From contig JAGAYY010000025.1 of the NCBI GenBank assembly GCA_017940265.1, positions 711 to 64,710 on the forward strand: a stretch of 64,000 nt of DNA, read 5' to 3'. The stretch is from Bacilli bacterium (GTDB lineage Bacteria; Bacillota_I; Bacilli_A; RFN20; CAG-826). The first letter of the stretch is position 1; each line of letters starts with the position of its first letter. Positions 13,012-22,699 of the stretch are shown in pieces. The notes under the pieces were generated by a model. It was given only the letters and a program-made list of their open reading frames with translations, made no database searches and was not told where the DNA came from. Made by a program: the position numbers and the translations under genes.

Positions 13012-13920
13012 ATGGGAATTTCACTAGAATTATTAACAGATGAGGATATACTTGACTATTCTCGGGAAGCAGGTGAAGATCATGTCCTAACTTCTAAGTC
13101 GGACCTGAACCTGAAATATGATAATATTCGCCCTATCGTAGGTGGATGTTATGACCCGGTGATTTTTGGTAGTCCTTTCGCAGATCGTTGTATTTGCGGT
13201 AAGATAAGACAACCTTCGAAATCACCTTGCCCGAATTGTGGAGTAAGAGTATATTCGAAAGAGGAAGCACTTAGAAGATTTGCTCGTATTGAATTGCCAT
13301 TCTATTATCTAAATGACCTGAGATTTGACATTTTCAAGCAGAAATTTGATACTATTTTTAAAGACACAAAGATTATTCTCAACTTTAGTGGTGATGATCT
13401 TAAGCGTCTAGGATATAGTGCAAGAGGAGCTAAGAAAATGGGTATTAAGGTCTTCGATATGTGTCAATTCGATTATAATCCCGACACTAAAGAACTAACT
13501 GTCAGTGAATTTATTACTGACGAGTCTAAATGTTCTTATGAAGGAATAATGAAAATAATCGAAGAGTATTTCCCCGAACATTTGACGGAATACAAGAAAC
13601 TAATTAACCGTTATTATCTTGTACTCCCTGCTGTTATGCGCCCCTTCACACTTACCTATAGAGATGGTAAAAAACTGATGGGAACGCACAAACTCAGTAT
13701 TTGGTATTCTTCTATTATTTGGCTTTGTTGCGTCGAAGATAAGAAGGGTGCAGATAAATTAAATTATGAAACGGTTATGGAGTCGCTCAAAACACCGGGC
13801 GAACGAGTTAGATATACGGCTCTCTTACGCGCTTACCTAAATGCTGGTAAAAAAGAAGCCACCGAACTCCTTAATACCTCTAAGGAAAATCTAGCACGTG
13901 AACTCTATGCCGTACGTACT
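13012..13920 (+). CDS. rpoC: RNAP beta-prime homologue, exon 1
   Basis: An N-terminal zinc-ribbon region is present (FGSPFADRCICGKI...CPNCGV...RFARIELPFYY). The exon ends in U at 13920, which is paired to the intron guide sequence. Confidence 0.75.
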
Positions 13921-14733
13921 AAGCAGAATTTTTGGTACGTGAAAGTTACTAATAGACTTTCTACTTGAATCCAAATCAAGTAAATTTTGTGTATTGCTGG
14001 AACCTCGTGAATGGGGAATCAGCAGCTTTACTTAGGGATTATTATTAAATAAAAATAGAAGATTATGAGAATACCAAGACTCTCCGAAGTTTCTGATTTC
14101 TCTGATCTCCTAGACTTCGATTTCTTTGATAGATCTGAACGAATGAAAGAACTACATCGGGAAGGACGTTACATTGGTACTTCCAAGATTGGTGTCTGGA
14201 ATAGATCAGAAGAAAAAAGAGAAAGAATGAAACGGATCCGAGAACAGAATCAGAAAGATAAAACTTCTCGGGGATATGGATCAGAGTATCATCAGCGTCA
14301 AGCTAATCGTACGCTCCTTCATAATAAGTTTCAAGGACTCAAAGGTTTTATGTACCTGCTCGAGTTCCCTAAAACTATTAAAGTAGGATTCTCGAAAAAC
14401 TGGGAAAGACGTACGAGTAAACAAATAATTGGTGGTCGAGTAGTATTAATTATCTCCGGCCCTACCAATAATCTGGCTGACTTGGAATTTGATACTTTAG
14501 TCGAGTTTCAAGATTTTACACAGCTGGATGAAACAGGAACTAGATATACTGAGTTCTTAGATAAAAAGGTTGCGCCAGAAGTATATGATTTCTTGATGGA
14601 ACACGCAGTATCCGACCCTACCCTAAAAGTCGAGGTACAGAATCCTCTCTAAAAGTAAAGTTCAACGACTATGTACAAAACTCTCGTAGAAGATATAGTC
14701 TATGTTAGGAAAAGGAAACTTACCTAACTAAAG
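13921..14733 (+). mobile_element. group I intron 1 (813 nt) carrying an endonuclease ORF
   Basis: Core elements: P ttgctggaacc 13994-14004, Q gaatcagcagc 14016-14026, R gttcaacgactatg 14660-14673, S agaagatatagtcta 14688-14702. Guide ggtacgtg (13934-13941) pairs 8 bp with the exon end, with U.G at 13920. A P9-like hairpin gttagg/cctaac is followed by taaaG at 14733. Confidence 0.7.
14065..14652 (+). CDS. intron-encoded T5orf172/GIY-YIG-like homing endonuclease
   Basis: 195 aa. The C-terminal half FMYLLEF...IKVGFSKNWERR...TEFL resembles the T5orf172 (GIY-YIG superfamily) pattern. The ORF sits between the Q and R elements. Confidence 0.5.
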   Translation: MRIPRLSEVSDFSDLLDFDFFDRSERMKELHREGRYIGTSKIGVWNRSEEKRERMKRIREQNQKDKTSRGYGSEYHQRQANRTLLHNKFQGLKGFMYLLEFPKTIKVGFSKNWERRTSKQIIGGRVVLIISGPTNNLADLEFDTLVEFQDFTQLDETGTRYTEFLDKKVAPEVYDFLMEHAVSDPTLKVEVQNPL

Positions 14734-14977
14734 AAAAATTCCGCACGTTGCCCGATTGTACCTGACATGAATCTTAAGATTGATGAGCTGGGGATCCCGA
14801 GACATATAGGATACGAAATGCTTAGGGAGGGCTTCATTGAATATTTAATGAAGGAACTCAACTTCACTAAAAAAGAAGCAATGAAGGCAACTAAGGAAGA
14901 AGCAACAAATCCGGAGACTCAGAAATTGTTTAAAGAATATGCAGAAAAACAATATGTATTGGTGAATAGACAACCGT
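14734..14977 (+). CDS. rpoC: RNAP beta-prime homologue, exon 2
   Basis: The exon 1-2 junction reads LYAVRT|KNSARCPIVPD...DELGIP (compare LMGKRVDFSARTVI...GVP in Rpb1-type sequences). The exon ends ...VLVNRQP plus T. Confidence 0.7.
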
Positions 14978-15138
14978 TAATAGTGGCGGCTTATGGTAAA
15001 AACTTTAAGAAAAGTTCATTAAATGCTAGAATGGTTTAGACCTAATTAGCAGCTTAGAATAATAAATTCTAAGTTCAACGACTATATATGAACCCTAGAT
15101 GATATAGTCTACGTTATTCAGGAATGAAATAACTATAG
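14978..15138 (+). mobile_element. group I intron 2 (about 161 nt, no ORF)
   Basis: Core elements: P aatgctagaatgg 15022-15034, Q ctaattagcagc 15042-15053, R gttcaacgactatat 15073-15087, S agatgatatagtct 15097-15110. Hairpin gttatt/aataac is followed by tataG at 15138. A short P1 forms between ccgt and gcgg. Confidence 0.6.
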
Positions 15139-16129
15139 CGCTTCACGAATACTCTATTTTCTGTGTAAAAATTAAACTAGTGGATGATTATACATTACAT
15201 TTTCCACCGGCCATCTGTTCTCCGCTTAACGCTGATTTTGACGGCGATACGGTGTCTATTCAGCTTGTGCCTGAAGATGTAGCTGAGGACACATATCGAA
15301 AAATGTCACCAAGATACGTAACGTATTATAAGAAAAATGGTAAACCTATTCCTGAGATAAACCATGAGGTACTTAATGGTTTAGCAGTATTATCGGAATG
15401 GACACCAGAATCTGCGGAAGAACTTAAGGAACCAAGATATTATTATGATGATTATGTTAAACTCCTCAAGGATGTTGAAGTAAATAAAGTAATAAAAGTT
15501 GGTACTCCTATAGTATTTACGGGCCAAATAGGAAAAGTTAAGTATCAGTCTGAAATAACAACCTATGGAAAAATTCGACTTTCTAAGATTCTCGAAAAGA
15601 ATATAGATGATCTCGGATTCACAAAAGATAAATACACTCGATTCGATGCAAAAGCTGCTACTAAATTGAGTGCTTACCTATGTGATTTCCCCGAAGATGG
15701 AGTTGAAAAGAGACTTGAGCTCCAGAAACTTTGTCTAAGAGTTGTTAGTTTGGCAGGTGTAGTAACATTTGATTATTCTACACTCTACACAGATACTAAT
15801 ACAGAAACCTACAAGGAAATTTGTAAGATTGCAGATTCACCAGACCTAACAGATCAGCAAAAATTATGTCTCCTTACTGAAAAATACGAAAAGTATGAGA
15901 AGGAGATCGAAGCGAGTTTCTCAGACGACCTTAAGAACGAATTAAATCGAGCAGGTCGTGTTAAGATAAGTAGCATATCAGCCTTGAATATGCCCCAACT
16001 AATTATTAGTGGTGTAGATGAACTTCCTGTAATTACTAGAGGTTCATTGTTATCAGGGTTATCAGAAAAAGATATGATATTCCATTCTATTGAGAACCGC
16101 TCATTACAATCCATAAAAGTTAGTGGCGT
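15139..16129 (+). CDS. rpoC: RNAP beta-prime homologue, exon 3 (catalytic NADFDGD)
   Basis: The exon 2-3 junction gives NRQP|SLHEYSIF. LNADFDGDTVSIQL lies downstream. The exon ends ...ENRSLQSIKVSG plus GT. Confidence 0.75.
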
Positions 16130-16481
16130 ATATTACATCAACCCCGAATAGATGGTGCGCTACTTAATAAAAATGCAGATTATTGCTGGAAAGAATGAAA
16201 TTTTTAATCAGCAGCTTATTATTATGAACACCAAGTCAATAGTATCAATCTTAATAACAGTCGGAACAATCTTATCCGGAATTGGCCAGCTCATACACGA
16301 ACTGGAAAACTCGCGCAAAAAGATGTCCGACGATAAGAAACATATGTAATAAGTTCAACGACTATATACTGTACTTAGATGATATAGTCTAATTGGTTAT
16401 GGATGAACATAACCCATAAGGCGTCGGAAGAAGATATTGCGCGTGAATCTTCAGTTCGTCTCCTTATTGACCAAATTCGGG
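16130..16481 (+). mobile_element. group I intron 3 (about 352 nt)
   Basis: Guide gcgctact (16157-16164) pairs 8 bp with exon agtggcgt, with U.G at 16129. Core elements: P 16183-16193, Q 16206-16215, R gttcaacgactatat 16353-16367, S 16377-16390. Using G 16481 as the 3' terminus restores SGV|SLTRQ. A structurally canonical alternative 3' site lies at 16420. Confidence 0.55.
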
Positions 16482-16824
16482 ATCACTTACTCGTCAAATT
16501 TCCTTCCTCTTAAATAATTACGTTTATCAGGATGGAGAAGACATAGAAAATCCTGGTCTACTTATTCCAAGATACAAGGCACTCGGAAGAACTGCCCCAA
16601 ATGGAAAAGTATACCCAGAAACTTACTCAGGCAAACCAAATGAAGACGACCTTGTTCCTGTTAGATCTATCCTTACTAAAAAGACCGGAGACTTAAATGT
16701 AGTAACTCCAGACTTGATCGGTAAGAAATTTAAAGATTTTACATCAGGAGCAGCTATCGGACTATCATTTGCACGTTCACTTACCGAAGGAACAACTCAG
16801 GCCGCACTAGGTTTGAAACACGGT
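16482..16824 (+). CDS. rpoC: RNAP beta-prime homologue, exon 4 (bridge helix to trigger loop)
   Basis: SGVSLTRQISFLL matches the NSGYLTRRLVDV region. GAAIGLSFARSLTEGTTQAALGLKHG matches GEAIGxIAAQSIGEPGTQLTMRTFHxGG. The ORF track missed this exon because it is short. Confidence 0.6.
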
Positions 16825-18036
16825 CGGAAAAATGACTGCTGTGTATAAATAAGTAAAAATGCTGGAAGGGTAGAATAACCAAATCAGCAGCTAGCATAAA
16901 ATTATTGGGCTTCTTAAAATTAATATGACAGAATTAATAACCTATAAAGGAAAACAATATGAAGTAACTAATCCAGGAGAACTAATATATAGTACAACAC
17001 ATTATCTCAGAGGTTGTAGAAAAGATAAACGATTTGAAATAGTAGATCAACTTAATGGATGTTCTGAAATTCAATAATCATTCAAGTTGTGGTAGTAGAA
17101 TAAAATACCTACAAACTAAATACGGATTAACTGAACTAGATTATTATATAATAGTAGTCTGTAGAGGAGATGAATCAAAGTTACCTAGATGTACTTACGT
17201 AAATCCATATACGGATGAAATATGTAACAAACCTAAGAAATTTCGAACATTAACTCCAGGATTATATTAAAGAACCGGAAAACGAAAAAGAATATTTCAT
17301 GAAGGGTGTGAAGAGCATGCAAGTAATGCAGCAGCTCAAATAGCACAACGAGAAAATTATAAACGTGGCGTTACTAGTCTCCAAAAAGCAGATAGAAAAT
17401 CTAAAGTTTGGAGAAAAACTAAGTCTTCATGCCAAGAAACAAATGGAAGAAGGTAATAGCATCTTTTCTCCAGATGATATCAGAAATGAAAATCTGCCTA
17501 GTTGGAAAAATTTTCAAGTTTTCCCATCAATAAATCATTATAAAGATATCGCAATTTCTCTTGGTATGGATGAGTATAACTTAAGTATCGAGAATTGTAT
17601 ATTAATTGATAAAATAAATTATATACGGAGAGGGAATCCTGAAGATATTTGTATCTATTATTTAACCTATTTTGAAGAAACTAGTGATTACTTTAAACCA
17701 GGTGTTACAATAGACTTAAAAGAAAGATCTAATACTGATTACCATGGATATAAATATAAAACTCCAGAAATATTATTTACATCTAGTCGATTAATTATTG
17801 CAGAAATCGAATATGAGGTAAAATTAAAATTTAAAGATTTCATAGTTTTAGGAAATGAAGCTTTTGATATCAAACACAAAGATGAAATCTTAGAATATAT
17901 AGAAGAACGAATTAACTATTATAATAAAAACGAAGCTCAAGATAGTTAATTATAAAAAAAAATAAAATGCTAGTTCAAAGACTAATATGCTTACAAAGAA
18001 GATATAGTCTATCCTTTTATAGAAATATAAAAGCCG
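16825..18036 (+). mobile_element. group I intron 4 (about 1.2 kb) with a fragmented endonuclease gene
   Basis: Guide gctgtgt (16838-16844) pairs 7 bp with exon acacggt, with U.G at 16824. Core elements: P 16857-16870, Q 16881-16891, R gttcaaagactaat 17973-17986, S 17997-18010. A hairpin cttttata-GAAA-tataaaag follows. The 3' terminal G is 18036 (18033 is also in frame). Confidence 0.6.
16925..17949 (+). pseudogene. intron-encoded T5orf172/GIY-YIG-like endonuclease, apparently split over three frames
   Basis: The coding sequence is in three pieces: 16925-17077 (frame 2), 17055-17270 plus an in-frame continuation after TAA (frame 0), and 17365-17949 (frame 1). The last piece carries ICIYYLTYF...KPGVTIDLKER...GNEAF. 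Confidence 0.4.
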
Positions 18037-18888
18037 GAAGGTCATGAAAGAGTGCTCGATAAAATGGGCTACTTAAAAGCTGAGAAATCTTGCACGTTCA
18101 GAGAAGAAGGTAAGTGGATTATCCTTAAGGTTAGAGGAGGAGAACTTAAGTATCCAAGACCCGATAACCTAGTAACATTGGGAAAGGATAAGTTTGAGAA
18201 AGGTGAGAGTGTATGTTGTGCTTATAATACCTCATCTCCAATCAGTAAGCTTAATTCATTGATTAATTTAATGAGAGCTAGAGGTTCGGCAGGTTTGAGG
18301 TATTTTGAGAAGGATAATATCATTGTATCGGATTGCTATGCATATGAAGATGGGATTATCAAGTATGTAGAAACTGAAGGGGGAGATATTGAAGTTAAGA
18401 TTGGGTCTAAGACTTATCAATATAATCCTAACTGTATGTATTATTTCCCTGACGGTTCTGAAGTGAAGAAATTTGATAGAATCTGCTCTGGAGTGGTTAA
18501 TATGGGCCATGTGATTTCAGAGCTAGGAACAGATCTGAATGATATCTATCTTATCTTCCGTAAGCAATTCTATACTTTAACAGATGGTGGATTCTTGAAA
18601 AATGGATTCTCTGATCTTGGTTCGACGCAGGAAGAAATTATTGAAATTCTGTTCGCAGGATTGACCAATATTAACTATGATCCTAAGTCAGCTAAAATTC
18701 AGGATATCGATTATCAAGGAACACAGACTGCCGTACTCTCAAAGAAATCATTCTATACCGTACTGTCTTATGGATATAGTTCTAGAATCATCGGTAAAGC
18801 ACTCAAAGGCGAAGTTAATCTTGGTAATGATGTTATGACCGGTGTTATCTTAGGCTTACTCCTTGATAATAAACTTGATCAGGATTAG
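18037..18888 (+). CDS. rpoC: RNAP beta-prime homologue, exon 5 (C-terminal part)
   Basis: In frame with exon 4. The five exons total 3339 nt, which is 1113 codons including the TAG stop. Confidence 0.6.
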   Translation, partial: EGHERVLDKMGYLKAEKSCTFREEGKWIILKVRGGELKYPRPDNLVTLGKDKFEKGESVCCAYNTSSPISKLNSLINLMRARGSAGLRYFEKDNIIVSDCYAYEDGIIKYVETEGGDIEVKIGSKTYQYNPNCMYYFPDGSEVKKFDRICSGVVNMGHVISELGTDLNDIYLIFRKQFYTLTDGGFLKNGFSDLGSTQEEIIEILFAGLTNINYDPKSAKIQDIDYQGTQTAVLSKKSFYTVLSYGYSSRIIGKALKGEVNLGNDVMTGVILGLLLDNKLDQD

Positions 18889-21841: not shown

Positions 21842-22699
21842 AAACTAGCGATTTGTCGTGATTAAATTGTATAAAAATGCTGGAAAGGTTAATCCCAATC
21901 AGCAGTATAGATTAGTATTGTAAGTTAGTATGTCTGTCCTGAACTTAACAAAAATAAAAGCATATGGAAACAGATAAAAACTTATGGTGGTATGAGAGAT
22001 TATATAAACAAATCACCGAACGAGGAAAACTACGTGGAGATGATAAATCAAAATTAGAAGGATACTATGAAAGGCACCACATCGTTCCTAGATGTGTTGG
22101 AGGTGGAGACGAACCAGAAAATCTAGTCCTCCTAACCTTCAGAGAACATGTCTTATGTCATATTATTCTCACTCGATTATATCCACGAAACTTACATATC
22201 TTGTTAGCAGCAAATATCTTGTTGCGAATAGACAAGAAAGACACAAATGGTAATATTATTAAGGTAACTATTAAACGATCTAGAGTTGCCGAAGACATAA
22301 AACTTAAATACGCAGAGGGTAAAACTAGAGAAGAAAGAATCAAAGTTTCTACCCCAGAATTAGGTCGTCGTTATTCTAAAGAAACGAGAGAAAAATTTAG
22401 GGCAGCTAGATTAGGGAAGAAACACCCAGGACATCCAGGCTTAGGAACAAAACCCAAGCCAGTCAAAGATCCAGCAGGTGTTATATTCCGAAGTCTTAAT
22501 CGCTGTTCAAAGGCATATTGCGTTAGTATTTCCACAGTTAAAGGTTGGATTACGAGAAGACAAGGATTTACTTACGTAGAAGATGATGAGTAAGACGACT
22601 GACCTACAATACTTAATCTATATTCAAAGACTATATATACAACTGTCCCAGATTACAGATGATATAGTCTAGCCTAAGGTGCAAACCTATAGGATATTG
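21842..22699 (+). mobile_element. group I intron 5 (858 nt) with an HNH endonuclease ORF
   Basis: Guide gtcgtg (21855-21860) pairs 6 bp with exon cacgat, with U.G at 21841. Core elements: P 21875-21888, Q 21897-21906, R attcaaagactatat 22612-22626, S agatgatatagtct 22647-22660. A hairpin is followed by atattG at 22699. Confidence 0.7.
21964..22593 (+). CDS. intron-encoded HNH homing endonuclease
   Basis: HHIVPRCVGGGDEPENLVLLTFREHVLCH is an HNH motif. NUMOD-like repeats (SKETREKFRAARLGKKH) lie C-terminal to it. Confidence 0.75.
   Translation: METDKNLWWYERLYKQITERGKLRGDDKSKLEGYYERHHIVPRCVGGGDEPENLVLLTFREHVLCHIILTRLYPRNLHILLAANILLRIDKKDTNGNIIKVTIKRSRVAEDIKLKYAEGKTREERIKVSTPELGRRYSKETREKFRAARLGKKHPGHPGLGTKPKPVKDPAGVIFRSLNRCSKAYCVSISTVKGWITRRQGFTYVEDDE

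Follow-up and report, generated by a model that had tools for sequence, protein, structure and literature searches.

The P8 helix is generally reckoned to be part of the conserved core of group I introns and, to our knowledge, appears in every consensus diagram of them. The subgroup IA2 introns of phage protein-coding genes (T4 td, nrdB and sunY, Twort, SPO1) are larger introns that possess both P8 and the P7.1/P7.2 elements, and the Azoarcus pre-tRNA(Ile) intron, a member of subgroup IC3, uses its P8 as a tetraloop receptor. This last intron is compact (205 nt), ORF-less and without peripheral domains (PMC13168695). A group I intron has also been described in a jumbo-phage RNA polymerase gene, gp210 of PhiPA3, where it carries a homing endonuclease that mediates competition between phages (Science 2024, PMC11620839). 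In the 'Jug' jumbo gut phages, 2513 group I introns with a mean length of about 206 nt were identified by subtype models, according to the available passages of that study (PMC12880540; preprint PMC12363816). The same passages describe phages of Bacteroides and Phocaeicola of 360-402 kb, with many small introns in essential genes, interpret these as 'group I-like ribozymes', and state that metatranscriptome reads support the splicing of 37 among 76 introns predicted in the clade (PMC12880540). Introns of Staphylococcus jumbo phages were predicted by Korn et al. from protein alignments only (10.1101/2020.12.14.422802), and Rfam found none in a related Staphylococcus jumbo phage study (PMC10638138).

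Our study concerns a 64,000-nt stretch of DNA (the window), part of a 376-kb contig (about 36% G+C) from a phage that fits the description of the Jug jumbo gut phages. The window carries genes for a multisubunit RNA polymerase, of which the beta-prime gene (13012-18888) is broken into several parts; in the catalytic region of this gene a 161-nt insertion (14978-15138) splits ...YVLVNRQP from LHEYSIF...NADFDGD. We conclude, with a probability of roughly 0.8, that the insertion is indeed a group I intron, with a 5-nt linker where P8 would be, and we infer that it leaves the RNA by the standard group I pathway. Like the Azoarcus intron, it is compact, ORF-less and devoid of peripheral domains; the Azoarcus intron differs in being 44 nt longer, in lying in a tRNA, in having a P8 and in that its self-splicing is proven by experiment. 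Unlike the PhiPA3 intron it has no ORF: apart from read-through from the upstream exon, we found no ORF of 20 or more amino acids within it, as the preliminary description of this DNA had stated.

The intron boundaries were worked out by hand from protein homology. When U14977 is joined to position 15139, the translation runs ...VLVNRQP-S-LHEYSIFCVKIKLVDDYTLHFPPAICSPLNADFDGD, the ligated exons being predicted to read ...CAACCGU|CGCUUCAC... with a serine codon (U+CG) across the junction, and the beta-prime protein spliced in silico reads NRQPSLHEYSIFCVKIKLVDDYTLHFPPAICSPLNADFDGD. The IMG/VR relatives have 56-79% protein identity to this beta-prime segment, and two of them that are intronless at the junction position encode NRQPSLHEYS there. 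The closest relative found (L006, 79% identity), which is uninterrupted over residues 1-299 of the segment, reads ANRQPSLHEYSMF, and the second (L007) reads VNRQPSLHEYSMF. The RNA polymerase Rpb1 domain 2 (Pfam PF00623) matches the spliced product collinearly, in one stretch that spans the junction; once spliced, the beta-prime gene is intact. The boundaries 14977|14978 and 15138|15139, which were proposed in the preliminary description, are the only ones that restore the NRQP-S-LHEYS of the intronless relatives, with U14977 before the intron and G15138 as its final base. It is very improbable that this is a group I intron with other boundaries, either larger or with a different junction: 14976|15138 (Ala) and 14979|15141 (Leu) are also in frame, but either choice costs the U at -1 or the G at the intron's end, fails to yield the serine of the intronless homologues and is at odds with the adjoining P1 and P10 guides, which occupy the same positions in a sister intron (see below).

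The intron with 60 nt on each side (281 nt) is 100% identical in at least six independent assemblies from different samples, on contigs of up to 394 kb, and is thus a real, circulating sequence rather than an assembly artefact. That independent samples of what is apparently a circulating phage share it unchanged also bears on whether the insert is removed at all. In jumbo phages, the beta and beta-prime subunits are often divided between an N-terminal and a C-terminal gene (10.1101/2020.12.14.422802), and gene callers give separate ORFs at this locus, as would be expected if the insert stayed in place and the pieces of a broken beta-prime gene were made as separate polypeptides. We find this hardly credible, since the break falls within the invariant NRxPxLH segment that is contiguous in relatives, translation restarted at the nearest start codon downstream (GVG at 15180) would lose SLHEYSIFCVKIKL, and the insert has every group I hallmark apart from P8, together with a highly significant match to the covariance model described below. 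A megablast search of the 6-kb region against phage records gave no match, exact-pattern scans of viral and metagenome collections gave no copy of the intron, and none was found at the NRQP-S-LH site in other phage lineages among the relatives and collections searched; its history therefore rests on its paralogues.

Table 1. Features of the beta-prime intron and its flanking exons (positions in the window).
Feature	Position	Strand	Sequence, pairing and basis
Upstream beta-prime exon	14734..14977	+	...NSARCPIVPD...YVLVNRQP and first base of the Ser codon; translation, tblastn collinearity with L006; 5' limit approximate
Group I intron, 161 nt, ORF-less	14978..15138	+	follows U14977, ends in G15138 (omega-G)
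P1	14974-14977 with 14986-14989	+	exon CCGU with GCGG; U14977 opposite G14986, a wobble pair
P10	14982-14985 with 15139-15142	+	AGUG with CGCU; directly 5' of the P1 guide
Internal guide sequence	14982..14989	+	AGUG (P10) and GCGG (P1); read from sequence
P2 hairpin	14990..15009	+	CUUAUGGU / ACUUUAAG; 7 pairs, one U-U mismatch, AAAA loop; MFE fold and pair check
P3 5' strand	15014..15019	+	GUUCAU; pairs with AUGAAC 15088-15093
J3/4	15020-15023	+	UAAA; follows the P3 5' strand
P4-P5 arm	15024..15051	+	MFE fold, pair check, relatives
P4	15024-15029 with 15046-15051	+	UGCUAG with UUAGCA
P5	15033-15035 with 15040-15042	+	GGU with ACC, loop UUAG; J4/5 AAU, J5/4 UAA
P6 hairpin	15053..15073	+	CUUAGAAU 15053-15060 / AUUCUAAG 15066-15073, loop AAUAA; 8 bp
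J6/7 and P7 5' strand	15074..15085	+	UUCAAC, then GACUAU 15080-15085 (R element); pattern search
J7/3 and P3 3' strand	15086..15093	+	AU, then AUGAAC (P3' 15088-15093); without P7.1, P7.2
Strand in place of P8, and J8/7	15094..15103	+	CCUAG 15094-15098 (remnant or linker), AUGAU 15099-15103 (J8/7)
P7 3' strand (S element)	15104..15109	+	AUAGUC; pairs with GACUAU 15080-15085
P9 hairpin	15113..15133	+	GUUAUU 15113-15118 / AAUAAC 15128-15133, 9-nt loop
Tail after P9	ends at omega-G 15138	+	UAUAG
Downstream exon	15139..16129	+	completes the Ser codon, LHEYSIF...NADFDGD...; first 4 nt CGCU form the P10 strand; 3' limit approximate

In a coordinate-based check, every listed pair of P1, P10, P2-P7 and P9 (Table 1) was a standard one, and an unconstrained MFE fold (-33.2 kcal/mol, z = -2.4) recovered P2, P4/P5, P6, P7 and P9. 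The R...S core pattern was found five times in the window, compared to none expected from shuffled sequences. A U-G wobble between exon and guide in P1 is also seen in the six relatives whose boundaries were worked out, and P2 is variable or absent among relatives. The P1 and P10 guides, the P3-P7 pseudoknot, the match to the covariance model and the covariation among relatives together uphold the earlier assignment of this sequence, with its core elements, to the group I introns. The accompanying remark that P6 is minimal has to be corrected: P6 is an 8-bp stem with a 5-nt loop, and the minimal helix is P5, with 3 bp. Subgroup IA2 was considered, as we take its J6/7-P7 (..AACGACUAU) and J8/7-P7' (..GAUAUAGUCU) to be very similar to those of the window intron, but was rejected, as P7.1/P7.2 and P8 are absent and J7/3 is 2 nt long here (3-4 nt in relatives).

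The preliminary description had noted that there is no room for P8, and this is indeed the case. The 5' strand of P7 (ending at 15085) and its 3' strand (starting at 15104) are separated by 18 nt, made up of AU, AUGAAC and 10 more nucleotides, so that only these 10 (CCUAG and AUGAU) lead from P3' to P7'. The P8 hairpin of group I introns is missing, with CCUAG alone between P3' and J8/7, and the P8 columns of the covariance model are deleted in the alignment of the window intron. Because the other group I features are kept, we classify it as a group I variant despite the missing helix.

Three of the four ORF-carrying introns of the window (cores 14661-14702, 16354-16391 and 17974-18011) also have just 18-22 nt between their P7 strands, and therefore either no P8 or one of 2 bp at most. 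The fourth, in the beta-subunit gene (22623-22671), is the only ORF-carrying intron of the window with a 4-bp P8 (CUGU...ACAG).

Many small introns, at many different sites, are present in the beta-prime genes of IMG/VR relatives (49 loci, from contigs of about 180-400 kb). We used these to build a covariance model, R1, from 17 relatives in one shared alignment register, modelling the pairs of P3, P4, P6 and P8 and including no window sequence; the restriction to a register-consistent subset was necessary because the MAFFT columns for P3 were off by one between subgroups. Standard pairs fill 96.7% of the paired cells in the seed, compared to 34-47% when the partners are slid by 1-3 columns, and changes on both sides of the helix are seen for all five pairs of P3, five of the six of P6 and all four of P8. 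R1 matches the window end to end at 15009-15143 (model positions 1-148, 95.8 bits, E = 8e-16), and nowhere else in the 1.73-Mb assembly is there a full-length match. The four other introns of the window match by their 3' halves only, because they are interrupted by ORFs. The 5' half of the third intron (P3-P4-P5-P4', 16169-16308) scores 23.9 bits against R1 and is overlapped by a 65-aa ORF (16152-16349), which parts it from its R/S core at 16354-16391.

R1 gave 197 matches across 31 sources. Among the best 150 of these are 80 distinct sequences, in which 95.7% of cells are paired (33-48% in slid controls), with P3 at 99.7% and compensatory changes in all five of its modelled pairs, figures that come from fitted alignments leaning towards the structure modelled in R1. 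The seed aligned by MAFFT only and an anchor-based check agree with them, with P3, at a constant position, taking at least 17 different complementary forms. The pairs of P6 also change in a compensatory manner in relatives, position 5 of P4 covaries between A-U and G-C, and the P7 5' strand GACUAU is invariant save for a compensated change to GACUGU/ACAGUC. The family thus defined consists of ORF-less introns of 154-185 nt, many per genome, in Jug and Staphylococcus jumbo phages.

The family is large and poorly annotated. The Rfam group I model (RF00028, Rfam 15) gave no match in the window at the gathering threshold or at E <= 10, and none at E <= 1 in three relatives' loci that hold many introns, including P8-containing ones (L015, L030 and L064). 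In all, it detects none of the approximately 200 introns of the family, with or without P8. Since P8-containing relatives are missed too, the model is blind to this lineage and its silence on the window intron says little. Annotation that relies on Rfam alone will show the interrupted genes as fragments, and as standard tools of this kind miss the family, jumbo-phage genes are routinely mis-annotated in this way.

The missing P8 is a recurrent feature of the family. In the fitted alignment, the length from P3' to J8/7 is bimodal, at 5-6 nt in 16 distinct sequences and 13-24 nt in all others, and the longer versions form a hairpin of 4-9 bp. Parsing by sequence anchors identified 17 distinct compact members without P8, with a spacer from P3' to P7' of always 9-11 nt, 10 different complementary forms of P3 and a dozen P6 stems; three of the 17 have the compensated P7 change GACUGU/ACAGUC. 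Total lengths worked out for such members are 160, 161, 161, 172, 173 and 184 nt. Sister pairs with the same P3 differ essentially by the hairpin alone, as in ...GAACAA-CUAAAG-AAGAU compared to ...GAACAA-CUAAAGAU-GAAAUU-AUCUUUAG-AAGAU. The loss of P8 is therefore not an accident of one intron but defines a class within this mini-intron family, in which the helix has been dispensed with repeatedly, and the core keeps its topology when a hairpin gives way to a short loop. The constant length of 9-11 nt suggests a strand that needs to bridge the end of P3, and no more, before it lines the active site as J8/7. By eye, no consistent distant partner for the linker (CCUAG, CUAAAG, AUAAA, UAUUA or GUAAA) was apparent across members.

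The altered P7 adjoins the presumed guanosine-binding pair in relatives L016 (6865-6970) and L020 (6861-6978), and a further variant, GACUGC/ACAGUC, is found in L034 (4379-4490).

The nearest relative of the window intron is a 160-nt intron in L064 that also lacks P8 and has the same CCUAG linker. It is inserted about 130 nt further on, after NADFDGDTISV, and its guides, UUGA and GCAG, lie at the exact positions of AGUG and GCGG in the window intron, each set fitting its own exons. The two introns differ in P3, P4 and P6 by compensated changes. The shared P8-less form combined with these changes indicates that the P8-less state predates the divergence of the two introns, and that the remaining structure has been kept under selection.

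In L064 (1-330), identity to the window is about 65% in the exon before the sister intron and 98%, in protein, in the exon after it. This step in identity resembles the tract that co-conversion or recombination would leave next to a mobile intron.

A sensitive blastn search with the 161-nt intron gave matches in Staphylococcus jumbo phages only, and R1 has 30 matches in Machias (MW349128) and 34 in LY01 (OR836606); the related Bacillus phage AR9 has none at E <= 0.01. This implies that the family has passed between jumbo phages whose hosts are Bacteroidota and others whose hosts are Bacillota. The GenBank record of the Machias head-protease gene joins three pieces. The first intron, with boundaries set in the present analysis, is 154 nt long and ends in G, the exon GUGAGU pairs with the guide GCUCAC, and the junction, FYGE-S-GHP, fits the GEMNHP of the intact homologue in Yersinia phage phiR1-37. 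Its core, GACUAA-AU-AUAUAA-CCUAG-AUGAU-AUAGUC, lacks P8 and has the linker of the window intron. The introns of Machias, Madawaska, MarsHill and LY01 thus belong to the same R1 family, and the 154-nt intron shares the P8-less CCUAG-AUGAU spacer; they differ from the window intron in the phylum of the host and in the genes interrupted, and this first head-protease intron has no P2, which the window intron possesses. The same interruption of the head-protease gene is present in AH12, PB50, Madawaska and LY01. Since these are plaque-forming phages and the head-protease gene is essential, we draw the strong inference that P8-less members of the family must be removed in vivo.

Two more intron cores, about 170 nt apart, lie in the Machias head-protease gene (L066, 1830-2200), with about 15 nt (uacguaugacugggu) between the introns that is probably a micro-exon; three intron cores suggest four exons, yet the GenBank join has three pieces.

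We propose the following pathway for the window intron, by analogy with established group I introns. The RNA would fold into P1-P2-P3-P4-P5-P6-P7-P9 with a P3/P7 pseudoknot, the 5-nt linker taking the place of P8. The 5' exon end, CCGU, would pair with the guide GCGG to form P1, with the U-G wobble at the splice site, and the G15080-C15109 pair of P7 (the presumed guanosine-binding pair, a role taken from established group I knowledge) would hold the free guanosine that attacks after U14977. In the next step G15138 would occupy this guanosine site, with the 3' exon kept in place by AGUG in P10, and exon ligation would generate the serine codon UCG and the NRQPSLH motif of beta-prime.

As P8 belongs to the core, its absence may reduce or abolish unaided catalysis, and we consider the chances that the window intron splices unaided in vitro to be about even. 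The more general proposition, that natural P8-less group I ribozymes of about 150-160 nt are autonomous self-splicing RNAs, we put forward only tentatively, at slightly less than even odds. Many group I introns rely on proteins in vivo, and the loss of P8, together with a P5 of only 3 bp, could have made a phage or host protein, such as a maturase-like protein or an RNA chaperone, necessary for the removal of what would then be a group I-derived intron with no autonomous activity. With tens of such introns per phage genome, one shared cofactor would pay off. We nonetheless think such a dependence unlikely, because the remaining core and the J3/4, J4/5, J6/7 and J8/7 segments are kept and conserved, P8-less members occur in phages of both Bacteroides-type and Staphylococcus hosts, which makes a host-specific factor improbable, and no candidate cofactor was identified.

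Should P8-less ribozymes prove to self-splice, the P3-P8 stack would not be obligatory in the catalytic core, and no self-splicing group I introns in nature would be smaller than those of this jumbo-phage family, whose sister pairs with and without P8 would be at hand for structure-function studies. A P8-less class with a tightly fixed 9-11-nt strand, compensatory evolution in the helices that remain and a place in genes essential to viable phages would call for a new definition of the smallest group I core found in nature. A ribozyme of this kind, about 25% smaller than that of Azoarcus, could be of structural and engineering use, for instance as a scaffold for RNA circularisation.

The small group I introns of this phage clade have already been reported in bulk, as far as the available passages of that study go (PMC12880540); those passages give no secondary structures and no mention of P8 loss, and what is new here is the P8-less structure of about 160 nt. 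A literature search found no paper describing a natural loss of P8, which is weak evidence given the literal nature of the search, and a search for the 'smallest group I intron' gave nothing usable. The preliminary description ranked the window intron among the most compact natural group I ribozymes, which is fair in comparison with the 205-nt Azoarcus intron; within its family of 154-185 nt it is an ordinary member, and the implied uniqueness does not survive the 160-nt sister in L064 and the 154-nt Machias intron, both likewise P8-less.

The NRQPSLH codons are a hot spot for introns (3440-5790 in L034, 4319-6001 in L007 and 14978 in the window). The introns of relatives lie about 15 nt upstream of the window site, after ...VL, and 8 nt downstream of it, after LH|EY, and the window's own lies between the P and the S. 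Two introns of L034 enclose a micro-exon, about 20 nt long, that encodes ..QPSLH.
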